From: Candidatus Heimdallarchaeota archaeon
Lineage (GTDB): Archaea; Asgardarchaeota; Heimdallarchaeia; Heimdallarchaeales; Heimdallarchaeaceae
Length of the DNA: 44,910 bases
Reading direction: 5' to 3'
Assembly (NCBI GenBank): GCA_021399395.1
Contig: JAAFKJ010000021.1
Span: forward strand, 1-44,910
The position numbers and the translations under genes were made by a program. The notes beneath the pieces are model-generated. The model worked only from the letters and a program-made list of their open reading frames with translations. It made no database searches and was not told the origin of the DNA. Below, piece by piece: positions 5,285 to 31,561 of this stretch (its first letter is position 1; each line of letters starts with the position of its first letter).

Positions 5285-6190
5285 GTGATAAATTTGAATA
5301 AACACGAAATACAAATGTATGAAGAACTCTTAGAGCTTCTTGAAAAGAGGTTTGATGATGGCGAGATTGATAAAAGCAATTACGCTGAGTTAAAGACACG
5401 ATATTTGCAAAAACTTGATACAGTTAAACAGAATCAAGAAATGCAAAAGGAAGCATCAAAAATTTACACTTCTGGAGTTAAATCAGTTACAGAAAGATCA
5501 TTAACAGCAGCAGGTTCTACACGAATTTCTGGTGGAGCAGTAAGGAAGGATATTCGTATTGCAGGATCTGGAAAAATTGATGGTGATGTAGAATGTAATA
5601 ACCTGAAGTCAGCTGGATCTTTGAAAAGTTTTGGAAACATCCTTGCTCACGGAGATGTTGGTTGTGCTGGATCTTTCAAATGCGCTGGGTCATTACACGG
5701 AGACAAAGATGCCAAATTCTCAGGATCCGCCAAGATAGAAGGAGAAGTAATAGTTAAAGGAAGAATTTCTGCAGCTGGAAGCTTCTCAAGTGGTAGTCTC
5801 ACTCAAGCAGAAAGAGGAGTCAAATTCTCAGGATCTGCAAAAATCCATGGAAGCCTTTTATCTCAAGGTTTAGTTGATATTGCAGGTAGAGTGGTGGTTG
5901 AAGGAGATTTAGTGGGAGAAGATGTCTTAATTAACAAAGGAAGACATGCTCATGGCCATAGATGGAAAAAACTCAAACCTTCTGTAATTGCAGGGAACAT
6001 TTTTGGAACTGGTGAAGTATATTTAGGCAATACTCGTGCAGAAGGAGATGTCAAAGGATTAAAGGTAGAAATTGGACCCTACTCCAAAGTTGAAGGTGCA
6101 ATCTACTATGTTGAGAGTATCGAAATAAATAACAAAGCTCACATAGAATCCGAGCCTGTTCAAATCAAAAGAGAGGATCTAAAGTTATAA
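5285..6190 (+). CDS. Bactofilin-like (polymer-forming cytoskeletal) beta-solenoid protein with N-terminal SHOCT-like helix
   Basis: Repeated (I/F)-x-G-S-x-x-I-x-G units of about 18 aa; C-terminal GDVKGLKVEIGPYSKVEGAIYY as in YhbE/YhbF-type bactofilins; N-terminal LEKRFDDGEIDKSNYAELKTRY. Start codon uncertain. Confidence 0.7.
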   Translation: MINLNKHEIQMYEELLELLEKRFDDGEIDKSNYAELKTRYLQKLDTVKQNQEMQKEASKIYTSGVKSVTERSLTAAGSTRISGGAVRKDIRIAGSGKIDGDVECNNLKSAGSLKSFGNILAHGDVGCAGSFKCAGSLHGDKDAKFSGSAKIEGEVIVKGRISAAGSFSSGSLTQAERGVKFSGSAKIHGSLLSQGLVDIAGRVVVEGDLVGEDVLINKGRHAHGHRWKKLKPSVIAGNIFGTGEVYLGNTRAEGDVKGLKVEIGPYSKVEGAIYYVESIEINNKAHIESEPVQIKREDLKL

Positions 6191-6208: not shown

Positions 6209-7105
6209 ATGGAAAACACACAAGAAAAAACAAATGAAAGTTATGAAAGAGCATTAATTAGCTCTGCAGGAAGTTTAAGAGAATCTGATACAGAGGTTAA
6301 AGTTTCTGGAGCCGCAAGTATATCTGGCGGAGAGATTCCAAAACAATTGAAAATATCTGGTTCAGGAAGAATAGAAGGTGATTTAAGGTGTCATGGATTA
6401 AAATCTTCAGGTTCTCTTCAAAGTGCAGGAAGCATTACTTCTCAAGGTTTTGTGAAAAGTTCTGGATCATTTAAGACAGAAGGAAGTCTTCAAGGAAATG
6501 ATGATGCAAAGTTTAGTGGATCAGCAAAAATCGGTCAGAATGCAACTATTGTTGGATCAGTAAAATCTTCAGGTTCTTTCAAGGTTGATGGAGATTTAGA
6601 TTTAGGTAACAATGCAAAGTTTAGTGGATCAGCAAAGATTGGAGGAGAAACATCTATACAAGGTTTTACAAAATCATCTGGATCATTCAAGATAAAGAGA
6701 AATCTACAAGCAGTTGGTGGATTAACCGCCCGTGGATATCTGGGGGTAAATGGTAATGTACTCTCTCAGAGTAATGTCTCAATACTAGGTGCCACTACAA
6801 TAGGTGGAAATTTGGTTGCTGAGAATATAGAAACCGACCCAACACGCTGGTACAACTTTCTGGGTTTTAGACGATTATTATCACGCAAGCACCCATACAA
6901 AGTTAATGGTAGTGTCTATGCGAAAAACAAAGTCAATCTAGGAAGAACAGCTGTAGAAGGAGAGGTTAAAGGTTTTGATGTCAAAATAGGAAGAAAAACA
7001 ATAGTAGGTGGACAAGTCTATTTTGTTAACTCCCTTAAAATTAGTCGTAGTGCAAAACTTTCTAGTGAGCCAATCCAAATTAAACCTGAAGAACTCAAAC
7101 TATAA
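6209..7105 (+). CDS. Bactofilin-like beta-solenoid protein, paralogue of the upstream gene
   Basis: KSSGSFK/AKFSGSAKIG repeats; same C-terminus as the upstream gene (EPIQIKPEELKL vs EPVQIKREDLKL); AAGGAG RBS. Confidence 0.7.
   Translation: MENTQEKTNESYERALISSAGSLRESDTEVKVSGAASISGGEIPKQLKISGSGRIEGDLRCHGLKSSGSLQSAGSITSQGFVKSSGSFKTEGSLQGNDDAKFSGSAKIGQNATIVGSVKSSGSFKVDGDLDLGNNAKFSGSAKIGGETSIQGFTKSSGSFKIKRNLQAVGGLTARGYLGVNGNVLSQSNVSILGATTIGGNLVAENIETDPTRWYNFLGFRRLLSRKHPYKVNGSVYAKNKVNLGRTAVEGEVKGFDVKIGRKTIVGGQVYFVNSLKISRSAKLSSEPIQIKPEELKL
6504..6636 (+). repeat. Intragenic 25-bp exact direct repeat, 108-bp (36-aa) period
   Basis: ATGCAAAGTTTAGTGGATCAGCAAA at 6504-6528 and 6612-6636. The upstream paralogue has CAAATTCTCAGGATC at 5713 and 5821, also 108 bp apart. 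Confidence 0.85.
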
Positions 7106-18784: not shown

Positions 18785-19429
18785 ATGGCAACTCCTGAAT
18801 TTGGAACAATTAGTGCAACAAGAATGGAATTACTAAACACTAGAGCCAAAATCCGTTTAGCACAGAAGGGTCATGATCTCTTAAAGGAAAAAATGGATGC
18901 TTTAGTAATTGAACTATACGCCATCAAAGATGAAGTCCGTGAAGCAAGAAAACAAGTTGAAGAAGAATTGAAGATTGCTTATCAATCTCTGGCAAAAGGA
19001 GAAATGGTTATAGGTCCAGATAAGATACGAGATTTAGCACAATATGCACCTTCTGTTTTGGAAATAAATACACAAACAATTAGTATTATGGGAGTTAAAT
19101 CACCCAGATTCATTGTAGAAGAGATTCAAACAGAAGAAGAAATTTTCTATGGTTTGACTAGTTCAAGTGCACAATTAGATCGTGCAATTGTGTATTTTAG
19201 AAAATCGCTAAAGACTCTGATGATAATTGCAGAAAAAATGACACTCCTTGAAAAACTCGCAACAGAGATTAATAAAACCAAAAGAAGGGTCAATGCCCTG
19301 AACTACATATTAATCCCCAAGTTGAGAGCAACAGCTAACTTCATAGCTAGTACTCTTGAAGAACAAGAGCGTGAAACCTTTTCAAGGCTTAAAAGAGTAA
19401 AAGCAATACTTGAAGCTAAGAAACAATAA
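18785..19429 (+). CDS. atpD: A/V-type ATP synthase subunit D
   Basis: TRMELL, GHDLLKEKMDAL, KTKRRVNALNY, LEEQERE. Confidence 0.96.
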   Translation: MATPEFGTISATRMELLNTRAKIRLAQKGHDLLKEKMDALVIELYAIKDEVREARKQVEEELKIAYQSLAKGEMVIGPDKIRDLAQYAPSVLEINTQTISIMGVKSPRFIVEEIQTEEEIFYGLTSSSAQLDRAIVYFRKSLKTLMIIAEKMTLLEKLATEINKTKRRVNALNYILIPKLRATANFIASTLEEQERETFSRLKRVKAILEAKKQ

Positions 19430-19595: not shown

Positions 19596-20615
19596 ATGTC
19601 GATTATAGATTGGTTTGATAAATTTCCACCATTAAGTATGGAAGATAATGGTTTAAAGCTACTTATTTATCTTCTATTGATTTTTACATTTCTAAGTGCT
19701 CTTGCAGTATTTTTAACTACAAGATATTATAGGAAAAAGGATTCGCCTTCACTTTTGGATCTAGATTTCGAATCGGATATACCAACTCCGTCAGATATTC
19801 CTTCTTCAGAAAGAATAGCAATTCTAAATATTGAGAAAGCAAAGTCAATTGCTGCTCAGCGTGCATTATCTGATGCACATAAGAAGAAGGAAGTTAGTGA
19901 AGCAATTTTTGGCAGATTATCCGTCAGATATGCATCTGATGTTAAAAAGATCGAAGACGAAATTGAAAAAACAACAAGAGAAGCAGAAGTCTCTCAATTA
20001 GAAGAAGAATTGAAGAAGATGCAAGGCGATTACTTAAGCAAAATTAAAGGAGAAGAAAAAATTGAAGTTACTCCTTCAACTCCTTCATCCGCACCACCAG
20101 CACCACCAATGCCTGCTGTAGGATCAGCTCCAGCACCACCAATGCCTGCTGTAGGATCAGCTCCAGCACCACCACCAATGCCCACTCCAACTCCAATAGC
20201 TCCTAAACCTGCTAAACCTCCAAAGCAAAAGAAGGTAAAGAAGAAGAAGAAGGATAAAAAAGGAGTTACTCCACCAACACCTCCAACTCCCGCACCTACA
20301 CCATCAGTGTCTGGAACAGCTGCACCTCCACCTCCACCTGGAGTTACTTCAACACCCCCAGGAACAGCAGTGCCTGCACCACCAATGCCATCACCTTTAC
20401 CAGGAGCACCAGCAAGTACTCCCTCAATACCAGCACCAACAGTGCCAACACCTAAACCACCTGGACTAGGAGCACCAGCACCAGCCGTAGCTCCACCAGC
20501 AGCTGGAGAAGGAGAAGGGGATTTATTTGCAAAAAGTACTTCAATTGCTGCACTTCGAAAAGAAATGCTCAAGGAACTAGATCGTCTCAAGAAATTCATG
20601 AGCGAACAACAGTAA
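19596..20615 (+). CDS. Single-pass membrane protein with coiled coil, polyproline/basic low-complexity region and C-terminal amphipathic helix
   Basis: Hydrophobic LLIYLLLIFTFLSALAVFL followed by RYYRKK; helical region; PPAPPMP and APPPPPG tracts; KQKKVKKKKKDKK; C-terminal SIAALRKEMLKELDRLKKF. Confidence 0.85.
   Translation: MSIIDWFDKFPPLSMEDNGLKLLIYLLLIFTFLSALAVFLTTRYYRKKDSPSLLDLDFESDIPTPSDIPSSERIAILNIEKAKSIAAQRALSDAHKKKEVSEAIFGRLSVRYASDVKKIEDEIEKTTREAEVSQLEEELKKMQGDYLSKIKGEEKIEVTPSTPSSAPPAPPMPAVGSAPAPPMPAVGSAPAPPPMPTPTPIAPKPAKPPKQKKVKKKKKDKKGVTPPTPPTPAPTPSVSGTAAPPPPPGVTSTPPGTAVPAPPMPSPLPGAPASTPSIPAPTVPTPKPPGLGAPAPAVAPPAAGEGEGDLFAKSTSIAALRKEMLKELDRLKKFMSEQQ
20097..20174 (+). repeat. 33-bp coding tandem repeat (PAPPMPAVGSA) x2 plus partial copy
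   Basis: CCAGCACCACCAATGCCTGCTGTAGGATCAGCT exact at 20097-20129 and 20130-20162, then CCAGCACCACCA. Confidence 0.95.
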
Positions 20616-20629
20616 AGCTTAATCAACAA

Positions 20630-20676
20630 GGGTTGAAACGATAGGTTGTTTCTACCCAATTTCATTTTTATTTTTC
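20630..20676 (+). terminator. Hairpin plus T-rich tract after the proline-rich gene
   Basis: GGGT-T-GAAACGA/TAGG loop/TTGTTTC-T-ACCC (20630-20657) followed by TTTCATTTTTATTTTT. Confidence 0.45.
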
Positions 20677-20760: not shown

Positions 20761-21507
20761 GTGAGTTTTCATATGAATCAAAAGGAACAACAATTCCAAA
20801 AGCAAGAAAAAGAGAAACTCTTAGCTGCACAGAAAGCTGCTAAAGAATTCATTTATGACGAATTTGCAGTAGGAGTAGGCACAGGCTCTACTGTTAAGTA
20901 TTTTATTCAAGAGCTTGGGATACTTATTGAAGAGGATGACTTAGAGATCATTACAGTTCCTTCATCTAATGAAACTCACCTTGAATTAATAAAGGCTGGA
21001 CTACCAGTGGGAACTCTGGTAGAATATCCTGAACTTGAAGTCTATGTTGATGGTACAGACATCATAACAGAGGATTTTGTTCTTATCAAAGGCGGTGGAG
21101 GAGCATTTACTAAAGAAAAAATCCTTGCAAGTGCATCTAAAGAGTTCATTGTAATTGCAGATAGTTCGAAATATCCAAAAGATCTCATTAGCCAACCTGT
21201 ACCGGTTGAAATAATCAGCGACGCCGTAAACACCGTTATCCAACCAATCTTTTGTTTGGGGGGTGAGTTAAGAATTAGACATGGAACTGGAAAAGTGGGT
21301 CCTGTGATTTCAGACAATGGTAATATAATAGGGGATATCTATTTTCAGAAATTATATAATCCAGTTGTAATTGAAAAAGAACTAAACAACATACCTGGTA
21401 TTGTTGAAAATGGATTGTTCCCAAAAGGTCCACATAAAATCTTAATTGGACAAGAAGATAAAACAAAAATTATTGTCAGAGAGATTGATACTAAATTAAA
21501 GCACTGA
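20761..21507 (+). CDS. rpiA: Ribose-5-phosphate isomerase A
   Basis: GVGTGST, VDGTD, IKGGGGAFTKEK, PVEI, SDNGN, IPGIVENGLF. Confidence 0.96.
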   Translation: MSFHMNQKEQQFQKQEKEKLLAAQKAAKEFIYDEFAVGVGTGSTVKYFIQELGILIEEDDLEIITVPSSNETHLELIKAGLPVGTLVEYPELEVYVDGTDIITEDFVLIKGGGGAFTKEKILASASKEFIVIADSSKYPKDLISQPVPVEIISDAVNTVIQPIFCLGGELRIRHGTGKVGPVISDNGNIIGDIYFQKLYNPVVIEKELNNIPGIVENGLFPKGPHKILIGQEDKTKIIVREIDTKLKH

Positions 21508-26012: not shown

Positions 26013-26351
26013 TCACATTTCTATGTCAATGCCCAGAGCCATTTTAATCAATGCACGAACCTTATCTTCTGCACTTTCATACTGTGCTTTTTTCCCTGGT
26101 ACTTCAACAATGACAGGATATGGATTGAGTTTTATTCTTCGGATTAAATCTTGGTTTGCTTTAGCAACTTCCTCTGTTATTATCAAAATAGCTAATTCTG
26201 GATCATCTGCTTTTGAACGGAGTAAGGAGGATGCCTTTTCAGGTTCTTCTGTATATACTTCAGAAATACCTGCTAATTTAAAACCCAAAGAAGTCTCTTC
26301 ATCACCAATACTAACAATTTTAGTTCTTTGGGGGGTGCTCATTTTAATCAC
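26013..26351 (-). CDS. atpF: A/V-type ATP synthase subunit F
   Basis: IGDEETSLGFKLAGI, ILIITE, PVIVEVP, ALGIDI. Confidence 0.95.
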   Translation of the reverse strand: MIKMSTPQRTKIVSIGDEETSLGFKLAGISEVYTEEPEKASSLLRSKADDPELAILIITEEVAKANQDLIRRIKLNPYPVIVEVPGKKAQYESAEDKVRALIKMALGIDIEM

Positions 26352-28314: not shown

Positions 28315-30105
28315 ATGACCATTGCTAATTCAGAACAGACTGGTTACATTGAGAGAATTTCTGGACCTGTAGTTCAAGCTTCAAAAATGTTAGGAGCCAA
28401 ATTATATGATGTAGCGAGAATTGGTGAGGAGAAATTAGTTGGAGAGATTATCAGACTTACTGGAGATTTAGCTACAATCCAAGTGTATGAAAGTACAGAT
28501 GGGTTAACTCCAGGAGAACCTGTATATCGAACCAATGCTCCTCTTTCAGTAGAACTAGGACCAGGATTAATAAGGCAAATTTTTGATGGAATTCAAAGAC
28601 CATTACCAGTTATTCGTGAGATGTCTGGCGATTTCATAGAAAGAGGAATTGAAATTCCAGGATTAGATCACAAGAAATTGTGGGATTTTGCTCCCAGTGT
28701 AAAAGTTGGTGACAAAGTAATTGGAGGAGACATTCTAGGAGAGATTCCAGAAACACCTACAGTAGATTTCAAACTTATGGTTCCTCCAAACCTAAATGGA
28801 AAAATCGATTTTATTGCACAAAGAGGCGATTATAATATTGATGACACTGCTGCAACCTTGTTAACAGCTGATGGAGATAAAATTGATCTAAAATTCTATC
28901 ACAACTGGCCAGTTAGAAAACCAAGACCATATCACAGTCGATTACCTTCTAATGTTCCTCTAATAACAGGTCAGAGAATCTTTGATACTTTCGCTCCAAT
29001 TGCTAAAGGAGGAACTGGAGCTATTCCAGGAGGTTTTGGAACAGGAAAAACTGTAAGTCAACATCAGCTTGCTAAATGGTCAGATGCCAAGATAGTTGTC
29101 TATGTAGGGTGTGGTGAACGAGGAAATGAAATGACAGACGTTCTTCGTGAATTTCCAAGACTCGTAGATCCTTACACAGGAGGACCACTTATGGATCGTA
29201 CTGTTTTAATTGCAAATACATCAAACATGCCCGTCGCTGCCCGTGAAGCAAGTGTATATACTGGTATTACTCTTGCAGAATTTTTCAGAGATATGGGATA
29301 TGATGTTGCGATGATGGCCGATAGTACATCTCGTTGGGCAGAAGCTATGAGAGAGATATCAGGACGTTTAGAAGAAATGCCTGGCGAAGAATCTTTTCCA
29401 GCTTATCTCTCATCAAGAATTGCTCAATACTATGAAAGAGCAGGTCGTGTTTTAACAATTGGTTCAAAACAAAGAGAGGCCAGTATTACTGTAGTAGGAG
29501 CAGTTAGTCCTCCAGGTGGAGACTTTAGCGAACCAGTTACACAAAATACATTGAGAATTGTCAAAGTATTTTGGGCGCTTTCTAAAGAACTAGCAAGTCG
29601 TAGGCATTTTCCAGCAATTGATTATCTTTTAAGTTATACTCTTTATTGGTCAGCACTTGAAGATTACTACGCACAAAATGTGCATACTGAATTTCCCGAA
29701 TTAAGATCAGATGCTCTAGCACTACTACAAAAAGACAAAGAACTTCAAGATATTGTAGCTCTTGTTGGGCCTGATGCTTTACCTCCAAGTGAAAAAATAA
29801 TCCTTGAAACAGCAAGAATGCTCAAAGAAGATTTCTTACAACAAAATGCTTTCCATGAATCTGATAGTTTTTGCAGTCTAGAAAAACAATATTTGATGCT
29901 CAAAACAATTCTTCGTTTCCATGAAAAAGCTGAGGATCTTTACAGAAGAGGAACAAATGTCGCAGAAATATTTGAGAGTGATTTGGTTGTAAGAATTGCA
30001 CGAATGAAATATATCGAAAGAAGCGATGTTGAAACTAGTTTAAATGAGCTAATGAAAGAAATTGATGGATTAACACCTCAGAACTTCGGGGTGGAGGACA
30101 TTTAA
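28315..30105 (+). CDS. atpA: A/V-type ATP synthase subunit A
   Basis: [40 protein letters not shown]; no intein. Confidence 0.98.
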
Positions 30106-30118
30106 TAGAGGGATAAAA

Positions 30119-31561
30119 ATGACAATACAAGAAAAATATGAAGCAAGAGAATTTCAAACTGTATCAGAAGTTTCTGGACCTTTGATGTTTGTAGATTTAA
30201 AAGAAATGGGAGGAGTATCTTACGGAGAAATGGTTGAAATCACCACCACTACAGGAGAAAAAAGAAGAGGGCAAGTCTTAGATGTGTCCAAAAGTCTAGC
30301 AGTCATTCAGTGTTTTGAAGGTACTTCTGGTCTCGAAACAAAAGATACTACTTGTAGGTTTCTTGGAGAAACAATGAAAATAGGTGTCAGCAAAGACATG
30401 CTTGGTCGTGTTTTCAATGGAAGAGGTGACCCCATAGATGGTGGAGGAGATATAGTTCCAGATAAAATATTGGATGTAGCTGGAACACCAATCAATCCAT
30501 CTGCTCGTCAATATCCAAAAGAATTCATCGAGACTGGAGTTAGTACAATTGATACTCTACTTACTCTGGTTAGAGGGCAAAAGTTACCTCTCTTTAGTGG
30601 AAGTGGGTTACCTCATAATATGCTCGCAGCTCAAATTGCACGTCAAGCTAAAGTACTTGGAGCAGAAGAAGAATTTGCAGTTATCTTTTCAGCTATGGGA
30701 ATCACAGCTGATGAAGCTAGGTTCTTCCGTGATGACTTTGAAGCAACTGGTGCCTTAGATAAAGTTGTTTTATTCTTGAATCTAGCTGATGATCCTGCTA
30801 TTGAACGCCTATTAACCCCCCGGTTAGCTTTGACAGCTGCAGAACATCTTGCTTATGAGCTCGATTATCATGTTTTAGTAATTTTAACAGACATTACATC
30901 ATATGCAGAATCATTACGTGAAGTTGCAGCGGCTAGAAGTGAAGTACCAAGTAGAAGAGGTTACCCTGGATACATGTATTCTGATTTTTCAACAATATAT
31001 GAAAGAGCCGGAAGAATACAGAATAAGAAAGGAACAATTACACAAATACCAATCCTAACTCTACCAAATTACGATATTACTCATCCTGTACCTGATCTTA
31101 CAGGCTATATTACTGAAGGCCAAGTATACGTAGATGTGGCTTTAAATCGTAAGGGTCTTTACCCACCAATAAATCCATTACCTTCACTTTCAAGACTTAT
31201 GAAAGATACAATAGGACAAGGGTCAACTAGAAGCGACCACAAATATGTTGCTGATCAACTTTATGCTCTTTATGCAACTGGAAGAGATTTAAGAGATTTA
31301 GTTGCAGTTGTGGGAGATGAATCACTTTCAGATACTGATAAGAAAGTTCTAGAATTCGCTGATTTATTTGAACAGAAGTTTATCAACCAAGATTATCATG
31401 AAGACAGATCCATATTCGAATCATTAGATATTGGTTGGGAGATGTTATCTATTTTCGATGATCCTTACAGAGTTCTCAAGCGTATTCCTTCAGAAGTAAT
31501 TGATAAGTTCCATATAGACAAAAGAGACGATAAAACAGATTACAATTCAGTTGATACCTGA
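30119..31561 (+). CDS. atpB: A/V-type ATP synthase subunit B
   Basis: [47 protein letters not shown]. Confidence 0.98.

Follow-up and report, generated by a model that had tools for sequence, protein, structure and literature searches.

How Asgard archaea attach their filaments or their remodelling machinery to the membrane is a question on which one gene may bear that lies in a 44,910-nucleotide stretch of DNA (hereafter the window; contig JAAFKJ010000021.1 of assembly GCA_021399395.1, Candidatus Heimdallarchaeota archaeon). The gene is an open reading frame (ORF) at 19596..20615 on the forward strand (+), and its product of 339 amino acids (aa) is here called P0001. A first-pass annotation had proposed that P0001 is a membrane-anchored protein with polyproline, polybasic and WH2-like parts that promotes actin nucleation or elongation. 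Asgard archaea build actin-filled protrusions and crawl, and the accessible part of one report names only profilins and gelsolins as known regulators (10.1101/2025.11.30.690169).

We found that P0001 belongs to a near-universal Asgard set of proteins, in which a 25-residue C-terminal helix is carried on a Pro-rich arm and whose members include membrane anchors and Ras-like GTPase paralogues. We give about an even chance to the view that P0001 is a single-pass membrane tether, which would present this predicted docking helix to a very conserved cytoplasmic partner. Finding the partner of the helix would uncover a system of membrane recruitment shared by the archaea most closely related to eukaryotes, and the motif offers a cheap and concrete experimental handle.

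Conservation of the C-terminal helix

Sequence comparison confirmed that the ORF is a real gene, because homologues exist. We found 84 of them, with source labels of Heimdallarchaeota or Heimdallarchaeaceae. P0001 itself matched no family in Pfam (at E ≤ 0.01 and at E ≤ 1) or in NCBIfam. In the family alignment, which comprised 25 relatives, the transmembrane (TM) region, the hairpin stalk and, most of all, the C-terminus were conserved. Every column from D309 to K332 was invariant over these relatives, with whole-protein identity down to 53%. Motifs were counted over 83 family members. The exact 24-mer DLFAKSTSIAALRKEMLKELDRLK occurred in 82 of the 83, and the one exception has an aberrant C-terminus. 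Together with the wide distribution of the motif described below, this gave further support for P0001 beyond chance.

The other features of the C-terminal half were distributed differently. A Lys/Arg cluster was present in 45 of the 83 members and a run of at least five Pro in 40. Thus, the polybasic patch and true polyproline are features of lineages and not of the family. The first-pass annotation had pointed to a Lys cluster and to polyproline. Both are present in P0001, the latter as runs of the classical profilin-ligand type, but neither the conserved lipid-binding patch nor the conserved profilin ligand could be upheld. In other Asgard lineages the linkers are P/T/S-rich, P/E/V/K-rich, or built of GGPPKAP repeats.

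A portable module on different Asgard proteins

The consensus of the C-terminal motif is S-x-x-x-LRxEMLxELxRLKK-Φ-M, and it occupies the last ~25 residues. A profile of the whole protein matched 88 of 400 Asgard genomes. It found 29 of the 30 genomes of the own family, and elsewhere only the linker and the tail were matched. We then built a motif profile of 36 columns from 17 diverse tails, in which M324, L328, R330 and L331 are invariant. This profile matched 341 of the 400 genomes, among them 81 of the 90 of high quality, and 74 of 85 genera; in most cases a genome had one or two copies. The genome of P0001 has a single motif-bearing ORF.

Among 20 motif loci that were fetched, the same terminal motif was found on three kinds of N-terminal part. 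The first is one TM helix with a helical stalk, in proteins of 224-354 aa. The second is a polytopic membrane domain, in proteins of ~560-575 aa, and the third is a soluble helical domain of ~55 aa followed by GGPPKAP-type repeats, in proteins of ~200-260 aa. A similar diversity appeared in a search of 1.84 billion cluster representatives, which returned 98 motif proteins. The motif ended no more than 8 aa from the C-terminus in 89 of the 98. When only the 74 proteins of at least 150 aa were considered, 29 had one or two TM helices, 16 were polytopic and 29 had none. The 60 aa upstream of the motif contained at least 15% Pro in 66 of these 74. Several proteins carry more than one copy. P0090 has three tandem copies, P0133, P0137 and P0168 have two or three each, and P0113 has a Ras/Roc GTPase domain followed by two copies with polyproline between them and then by a zinc ribbon. 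Two Ras/Roc GTPases, P0173 and P0181, have the motif at their end, and P0175 adds a TIR domain. Source names were given for six of the ten motif clusters looked up, and all six are Asgard (Odin, Hod twice, Sigyn, Loki and Hel). As far as these names go, the distribution of the motif appears to be restricted to Asgard archaea.

When the Heimdall-type and Loki-type alignments were compared with HHalign, nothing but the 25 columns of the motif was aligned (probability 98.2%, E 5e-14). As the two families are joined in the motif alone, the C-terminal helix is, on this comparison, a portable module and not the tail of one orthologous family. We found neither the motif nor the family described in the literature, supplementary tables being outside our reach; the accessible parts of PMC8410842, PMC12962969, PMC9433394, PMC7240154, PMC12050087 and 10.1101/2025.11.30.690169 mention neither.

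Some further features of the motif proteins were observed. P0137, P0168 and P0113 (from Hod- and Sigyn-labelled clusters, that of P0113 being unnamed) combine their two or three copies with a zinc-ribbon-like CxxC...CCxC segment, and P0137 and P0168 have an extra C-terminal domain of ~150 aa that has no Pfam family. The soluble Loki-type proteins have more conserved mini-motifs, at alignment columns ~115-130 and 250-290. These are AASTLFxLLSG, which follows the helical domain at the N-terminus, and further on LPPAPKLPP and SFAKRP. The tripeptide FAK also directly precedes the motif in Heimdall-type proteins.

The helix as a candidate docking site

According to the alignment and the AlphaFold2 (AF2) model, one side of a single long helix carries the invariant M324, L328, R330 and L331. 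The hydrophobic moment is 0.45-0.50, the mean hydrophobicity is ~-0.3, and the polar residues R321, E323, E327 and R330 are invariant. Because of these invariant polar residues and the modest hydrophobic moment, the helix looks like a protein interface and not like a lipid anchor. We therefore infer that it is a candidate protein-docking site.

The rate of evolution of the motif was compared with those of other sequences at three distances. The motif core was identical at 21 of 22 positions within the same family, at 17 of 22 within the same order and at 15 of 22 within the same class. The N-terminal domain of P0001 gave 66%, 24% and 30% in the same comparisons, and the MIT domain of Vps4 gave 71%, 31% and 41%. 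Actin identity was 93% within the family and 78% within the order. The motif thus evolves about as slowly as actin and far more slowly than the N-terminal domain or MIT, which suggests that its partner is probably very conserved as well.

Protein anatomy and topology

The features of P0001 are as follows, with the coordinates of the window.

19596..19658 (+): N-terminal tail (aa 1-21), acidic in net charge and probably extracellular, with a conserved W6/P11-P12/D17/G19 'LPPxG'-like motif in near-invariant columns
19659..19715 (+): core of the single TM helix (aa 22-40), Kyte-Doolittle 19-aa mean 2.78, AF2 helix 18-47
19722..19739 (+): juxtamembrane basic patch RYYRKK (aa 43-48), which by positive-inside counts sets a predicted N-out/C-in topology
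19782..20054 (+): helical hairpin or coiled-coil stalk (aa 63-153), AF2 helices 70-96 and 102-153 with a predicted local distance difference test (pLDDT) score of 83-87, many invariant columns
20055..20516 (+): disordered Pro-rich linker (aa 154-307), 35% Pro, pLDDT <50, length 44-156 aa within the family
20097..20174 (+): perfect 33-nt tandem repeat (x2.4) inside the linker, encoding PAPPMPAVGSA
20223..20261 (+): Lys cluster KQKKVKKKKKDKK (aa 210-222, counted by hand), not conserved; only part of the aligned relatives have this insertion
20325..20339 (+): pentaproline in APPPPPG (aa 244-248), not conserved, a run as in classical profilin ligands
20517..20612 (+): C-terminal module (aa 308-339), a FAK mini-motif and the amphipathic helix STSIAALRKEMLKELDRLKKFM, AF2 helix 309-338

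Residues 22-40 are the sole hydrophobic segment of P0001 in Kyte-Doolittle windows of 19 aa. The N-terminal side of this segment has two K/R against four D/E, and the 15 aa past it have four K/R against two D/E. Similarly, most single-TM orthologues have 0-2 K/R in their N-terminal tails and 2-5 K/R in the 15 aa past the TM helix. The exceptions are L035 and, on the segment detected, L023. It is therefore supported, as a prediction, that the N-terminus of P0001 lies outside and that the long C-terminal part is cytoplasmic. A cytoplasmic C-terminal part is also indicated because proteins without a TM helix, and those fused to a GTPase or a TIR domain, bear the same linker and motif. On this point the first-pass annotation, which had derived the same orientation from one N-terminal TM helix followed by RYYRKK, agreed with our results. 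The coiled coil, the Pro-rich stretch with PPAPPMP, APPPMP and APPPPPG, and the terminal helix that it described were likewise all found where it had placed them, and its modular design, reduced to a flexible Pro-rich arm that presents a conserved terminal helix, was retained. It seems that the linker grows by recent repeat expansion, given the 33-nt tandem repeat within it.

Attempts to assign the stalk to a known family gave nothing specific. A fold search with the AF2 model, effectively with residues 65-156, returned best Z scores of 8-9.4 that were tied among unrelated helical hairpins (HIV gp41, the cytoplasmic domain of MK-D1 OST1, ESCRT-I, CdvA, Snf7 and a V-ATPase stalk). According to the note of the tool, helical-hairpin matches with Z of 8-9 are at noise level, and no fold was assigned. 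A SHOCT domain (PF09851) was rejected as well. It fell below the cut-off in 3 of 31 relatives (E 0.06-0.28, 11-13 bits against 27), and P0001 had no match. For the N-terminal part, the Protein Atlas returned unnamed archaeal clusters with top scores of 0.86, 0.82 and 0.77, and we regard these as no more than leads. We also observed that a (D/N)-x-LPP-x-G motif right before the TM helix recurs across several Heimdall-related families, with LPP(E/x)G in L024-L028 and L031.

From these features, a mechanism can be proposed. P0001 would span the membrane once, so that the N-terminus faces outwards and the C-terminus lies inside the cell, and the helical hairpin would form a stalk beneath the membrane. 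From this stalk, the long, fast-evolving and disordered Pro-rich arm might extend into the cytoplasm. The near-invariant amphipathic helix at its tip would be the docking module, portable between different Asgard anchors. The helix might capture a very conserved cytoplasmic protein and keep it near the membrane, by a logic like that of ZipA with FtsZ or of CdvA with ESCRT-III. If the partner were actin, the arm could also recruit profilin in the lineages with true polyproline runs.

Actin as a candidate partner

The genome is 2.8 Mb long in 201 contigs and is 81.8% complete. It has three actin-family genes, which matched PF00022 with 448, 437 and 197 bits. They lie on contigs C48, C37 and C149, and two are high-scoring and one is longer and more divergent (an open frame of 491 aa, 197 bits). 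The Pfam profilin model gave no match in the genome even at E ≤ 10. It misses a profilin homologue of 119 aa (G000:C23:4945-5289), which we located by way of the profilin of family f5 (itself matching PDB 6yrr at 1.6e-39) and which matches 5zza_P (1.2e-9) and 7pbh_A, 'Profilin' (2e-6). As the genome encodes both actin and profilin, the proposal of the first-pass annotation is not refuted on this ground. We also observed that Pfam matches to profilin in family f3 (E ~0.002-0.005) fall on a 134-aa protein (L068:232-636 (-), genome G043) that by eye resembles the roadblock/LC7 type. Low-scoring profilin matches in Asgard genomes should therefore not be trusted at face value.

Actin, bound on its monomer or on its filament side, was kept as the leading partner candidate, because the combination of a Pro-rich region and a motif, with tandem copies on the GTPase fusions, resembles the grammar of actin assembly factors and because the motif evolves as slowly as actin. 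On this analogy and on the conservation data, we tentatively regard actin as a possible partner. More speculative, and in our opinion somewhat doubtful, is the idea that the LRxEMLxELxRLKK helix is an Asgard-specific actin-binding module. It would then be a pre-eukaryotic counterpart of WH2- or Lifeact-type helices, and its carriers would be the missing actin nucleators or membrane-cortex linkers. In that case, the carriers would comprise TM tethers in Heimdallarchaeia, polytopic proteins in Hodarchaeales, soluble GGPPKAP proteins in Lokiarchaeia and tandem-motif fusions with Ras-like GTPases. Such proteins would link the assembly of actin with membranes and with signalling by small GTPases.

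Several points weigh against a docking helix with actin as its partner. The parallel between motif and actin conservation is a correlation over three comparisons, and any slowly evolving partner would fit it. The motif is no recognisable WH2 in Pfam, and the helix could self-associate instead of docking. In the part of PMC8410842 that we could consult, the Loki and Odin profilins do not bind polyproline and the Heimdall LC3 profilin binds it weakly, with a dissociation constant of 0.3-3.3 mM. Co-occurrence is uninformative because actin (359 of the 400 genomes), ESCRT-III (384) and the motif are all near-universal. Moreover, two families without the motif have actin-family matches. In f24, the motif was found in 0 of 7 genomes, and actin in 5/7, Snf7 in 7/7 and profilin in both of the two sampled. 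In f25, an actin-family gene was present in 5/5 genomes, and the motif (0/5), Snf7 (0/5) and profilin (0/3 sampled) were not found. The co-occurrence test that the first-pass annotation had suggested thus does not tell the candidate partners apart, and comparing the phyletic profile of the motif with those of actin, Snf7 and profilin was given up.

The original proposal goes further. It would make P0001 an assembly factor of the WASP, VASP or formin type, whose Lys patch sits on acidic lipids, whose polyproline loads profilin-actin and whose WH2-like helix feeds monomers to filament ends at the membrane. P0001 does have APPPPPG, APPPMP and a terminal LKKF, actin and profilin are encoded in the genome, and the conservation of the motif parallels that of actin. 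Moreover, P0113, P0137, P0168 and P0090 carry two or three copies of the motif with polyproline and Ras-like GTPase fusions, and tandem motif copies with polyproline recall the tandem-WH2 nucleators. The details fit less well. In a WH2 domain, a variable linker joins a short amphipathic helix to an extended LKK[TV] tetrad. Near the end of P0001 there is the LKKF, but at its second basic position other lineages may have K, R, E, G or A, and the invariant M324, L328, R330 and L331 fall where a WH2 would have its variable linker. The AF2 helix is continuous from 309 to 338. P0001 had no WH2 match, and WH2 (PF02205) matched 0 of the 17 motif peptides at E ≤ 10, a threshold at which the HMMER filters drop most matches above ~0.1. 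The WH2-like assignment of the terminal helix is thus not supported. The only Pfam match of the motif peptides was the OAR motif (6 of 17, best E 0.017), which we regard as chance. Profilin-binding Pro-rich regions in FH1 and Ena/VASP proteins contain repeated runs of the XPPPPP type. P0001 has one Pro5 run and several PPxPP tracts, and the linkers of other lineages are of the P/E/V/K or GGPPKAP kind. The uneven presence of the Lys cluster (45/83) and of Pro5 (40/83), and the weak or missing polyproline binding of Asgard profilins (PMC8410842, as accessible), also argue against this proposal. On balance, it is unlikely.

Alternative explanations

Two ESCRT-III genes and vps4 lie on contig C180 of this genome, and a link to ESCRT was considered. 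The helix might be MIM1-like and engage the MIT domain of Vps4 or another ESCRT component, and P0001 would then be a TM-anchored analogue of CdvA, with a polymerising hairpin stalk, a linker and an ESCRT-binding peptide. The two ESCRT-III proteins end in DLEAELEGLKKKMSEDN and DDLENEIQKLRRKEED, and P0001 ends in EMLKELDRLKKFMSEQQ. These tails resemble the second half of the motif, and the pattern [DE][LMI]..E[LIM]..L[KR][KR] occurs in only 3 of 4958 ORFs, which are the two ESCRT-III proteins and the target. This pattern is post hoc, however, because it was written after the tails had been seen. A profile of 15 ESCRT-III tails from other lineages ranked the two ESCRT-III proteins of the genome first and second, but the target 812th of 4958. 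Conversely, the motif profile ranked the two ESCRT-III tails 35th and 442nd. The MIM1 consensus is a C-terminal helix (D/E)xxLxxRLxxL(K/R). The spacing M324-L328-L331-K332 fits it, but the acidic position 1 and R7 do not, and with the failure of the unbiased profile, MIM1 membership was rejected. Furthermore, the MIT domain changes far faster than the motif, and in a comparison by hand within the same family, genuine ESCRT-III tails also change faster. As for CdvA, the hairpin of the CdvA filament (9s9g) is among the tied fold matches (Z 8.8, root-mean-square deviation 1.5 over 71 residues), but such values are at noise level. Two of 31 relatives matched the CdvA coiled coil (PF18822) below threshold (~20 bits, cut-off 30). 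P0001 had no match, no PRC-barrel family was among the matches, and a search of the own genome with PF18822 matched other ORFs (best E 0.0014). Membership of CdvA, defined by a PRC barrel with PF18822, was thus rejected. Families f25 (0/5) and f23 (0/1) lack Snf7 and the motif alike, but f24 has Snf7 in 7/7 and the motif in 0/7. Considering all this, the ESCRT link is quite unlikely.

The partner might also be the helix itself. As a homotypic coiled coil or oligomerisation element, comparable to the helix by which VASP tetramerises at its C-terminus, it would gather the tethers into clusters and, where a genome has more than one motif protein, co-assemble the GTPase and TIR paralogues with the membrane anchor, with no separate partner. 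The stripe I317/L320/M324/L328/L331/M335 and the paired charges suit packing of helix on helix, and a shared self-complementary interface would explain both the conservation across architectures and the tandem copies. By eye, however, the hydrophobic spacing of 4-4-3-4 makes no regular heptad, and P0001 already has a coiled-coil stalk. This genome has one motif ORF and most genomes have one or two, so hetero-assembly cannot serve as the general role. Self-assembly is decidedly unlikely in our estimation. Still less credit is due to the view that the helix has no docking role, being a membrane-binding amphipathic helix, or that the Pro-rich part is an extracellular spacer at the cell surface, which we consider very improbable. 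The helix is amphipathic, with the hydrophobic moment given above, and C-terminal amphipathic helices anchor MinD and FtsA. Surface proteins commonly have Pro/Thr/Ser-rich linkers. But lipid-binding helices do not typically have conserved acidic and polar residues or a mean hydrophobicity below zero, and lipid binding would not demand strict invariance of the sequence. The positive-inside flanks place the C-terminal part in the cytoplasm, and 29 of the 74 motif proteins have no TM helix, some of the motif proteins being fused to a cytoplasmic GTPase or TIR domain.

Comparison with known systems

A membrane tether with a docking helix has parallels elsewhere. In ZipA, a single TM helix with N-out/C-in topology is followed by a charged segment next to the membrane, a long linker rich in Pro and a C-terminal part that captures FtsZ. 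P0001 shares this topology, as predicted, and these parts in the same order, the capture of a cytoskeletal protein being known for ZipA. However, ZipA ends in a globular FtsZ-binding domain, whereas P0001 ends in a helix of ~25 aa and has a conserved hairpin stalk. No ZipA domain was found in P0001 by Pfam and no sequence relationship was seen, the C-terminal part being a single helix. CdvA is similarly membrane-bound. It too has a hairpin stalk and a disordered linker and ends in a short conserved peptide, which in CdvA docks the partner. CdvA has a PRC barrel, and its tail binds the winged helix of CdvB by strand addition; in contrast, P0001 has a TM anchor, no PRC barrel and a helical tail. 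By analogy, P0001 probably works like ZipA or CdvA and may work like a WASP/VASP-type factor, but it belongs to none of these families.

With WASP, VASP and formin proteins, P0001 has in common membrane targeting, a Pro-rich region and a short C-terminal helix. The motif contains an LKK-Φ tetrad, and some paralogues have tandem motifs with polyproline between them and are fused to Ras-like GTPases. The differences are that P0001 has no match to WH2, FH2 or EVH, that its helix is longer and continuous, and that the Pro runs and the basic patch are not conserved. The MIM1 tails of ESCRT-III proteins (Vps2/CHMP1 class) also end in an amphipathic helix past a Pro-containing linker, with Φ-x3-L-x2-L and then K/R, but the N-terminal half of the motif, STSIAALR, has no counterpart there, the profile comparison fails, and the motif is far more conserved than MIT. 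Finally, the Asgard gelsolins of the 2DGel type have LRRV, LKHV, LVDV or LKDV between their domains, and in the accessible parts of PMC9433394 and 10.1101/2025.11.30.690169 these are the only short actin-binding motifs so far described in Asgard archaea. An L-basic-basic-Φ tetrad is common to them and to the motif of P0001. The 2DGel motifs lie in extended linkers between domains, whereas in P0001, which has no gelsolin domain, the motif forms the last part of a long helix.

Gene neighbourhood and other observations

The window holds archaeal housekeeping genes, and the immediate neighbours of the target were assigned as follows.

18785..19429 (+): A-type ATP synthase subunit D (atpD), upstream neighbour, by Pfam and NCBIfam; upstream in 17 of 18 related loci
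20761..21507 (+): ribose-5-phosphate isomerase A (rpiA), downstream neighbour; in 18 of 18 family loci and in 6 of 7 TM-type loci of other families

The order DUF2067-csl4-atpD-target-rpiA-PINA-EndA-Trm5 was collinear in 17 of the 18 family loci, and the exception, L019, has no atpD. The block of atpD, target and rpiA does not appear to be an operon, because a gap of 166 bp follows atpD and the orientations differ in other lineages. Since rpiA adjoins the TM-type gene in six of seven loci from other Asgard families, again in varying orientation, the TM-type genes across Asgard classes appear, by gene order, to be positional orthologues. Accordingly, synteny was dropped as a clue to function. 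The nearby A-ATPase genes (atpD here, and atpF in L023 and L034) gave no usable functional lead either. The A-type ATP synthase genes are dispersed in the window and do not form a single operon. The gene atpD stands alone beside the target, atpF (26013-26351, -) lies ~7 kb away, and atpA-atpB (28315-31561) come after a phosphoglucomutase gene. In L023 and L034, which belong to another Asgard family, atpF adjoins rpiA and the motif gene.

In one genome of family f7 (G086, L027:442-1371 (-)), the next gene downstream of the motif gene, in the same orientation, encodes an extended Arf-family GTPase of 309 aa. An Arf GTPase is among the proteins enriched in co-immunoprecipitation with Lokiactin, according to the accessible part of that source (10.1101/2025.11.30.690169). 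On the antisense strand of the target, a Gly-rich ORF of 211 aa (20030-20665, -) overlaps the Pro-rich region. We read it as a mirror of the CCN-rich frame and not as a gene. The local GC content of 0.42, against ~0.33 elsewhere, is also explained by this CCN-rich Pro frame. Elsewhere in the window, the bactofilin domain (PF04519) was matched in two adjacent genes of ~300 aa each, at 5285-6190 and 6209-7105 (+), with E values of 2e-9 and 6e-9. They form a tandem pair of polymer-forming cytoskeletal proteins just upstream of SRP54.

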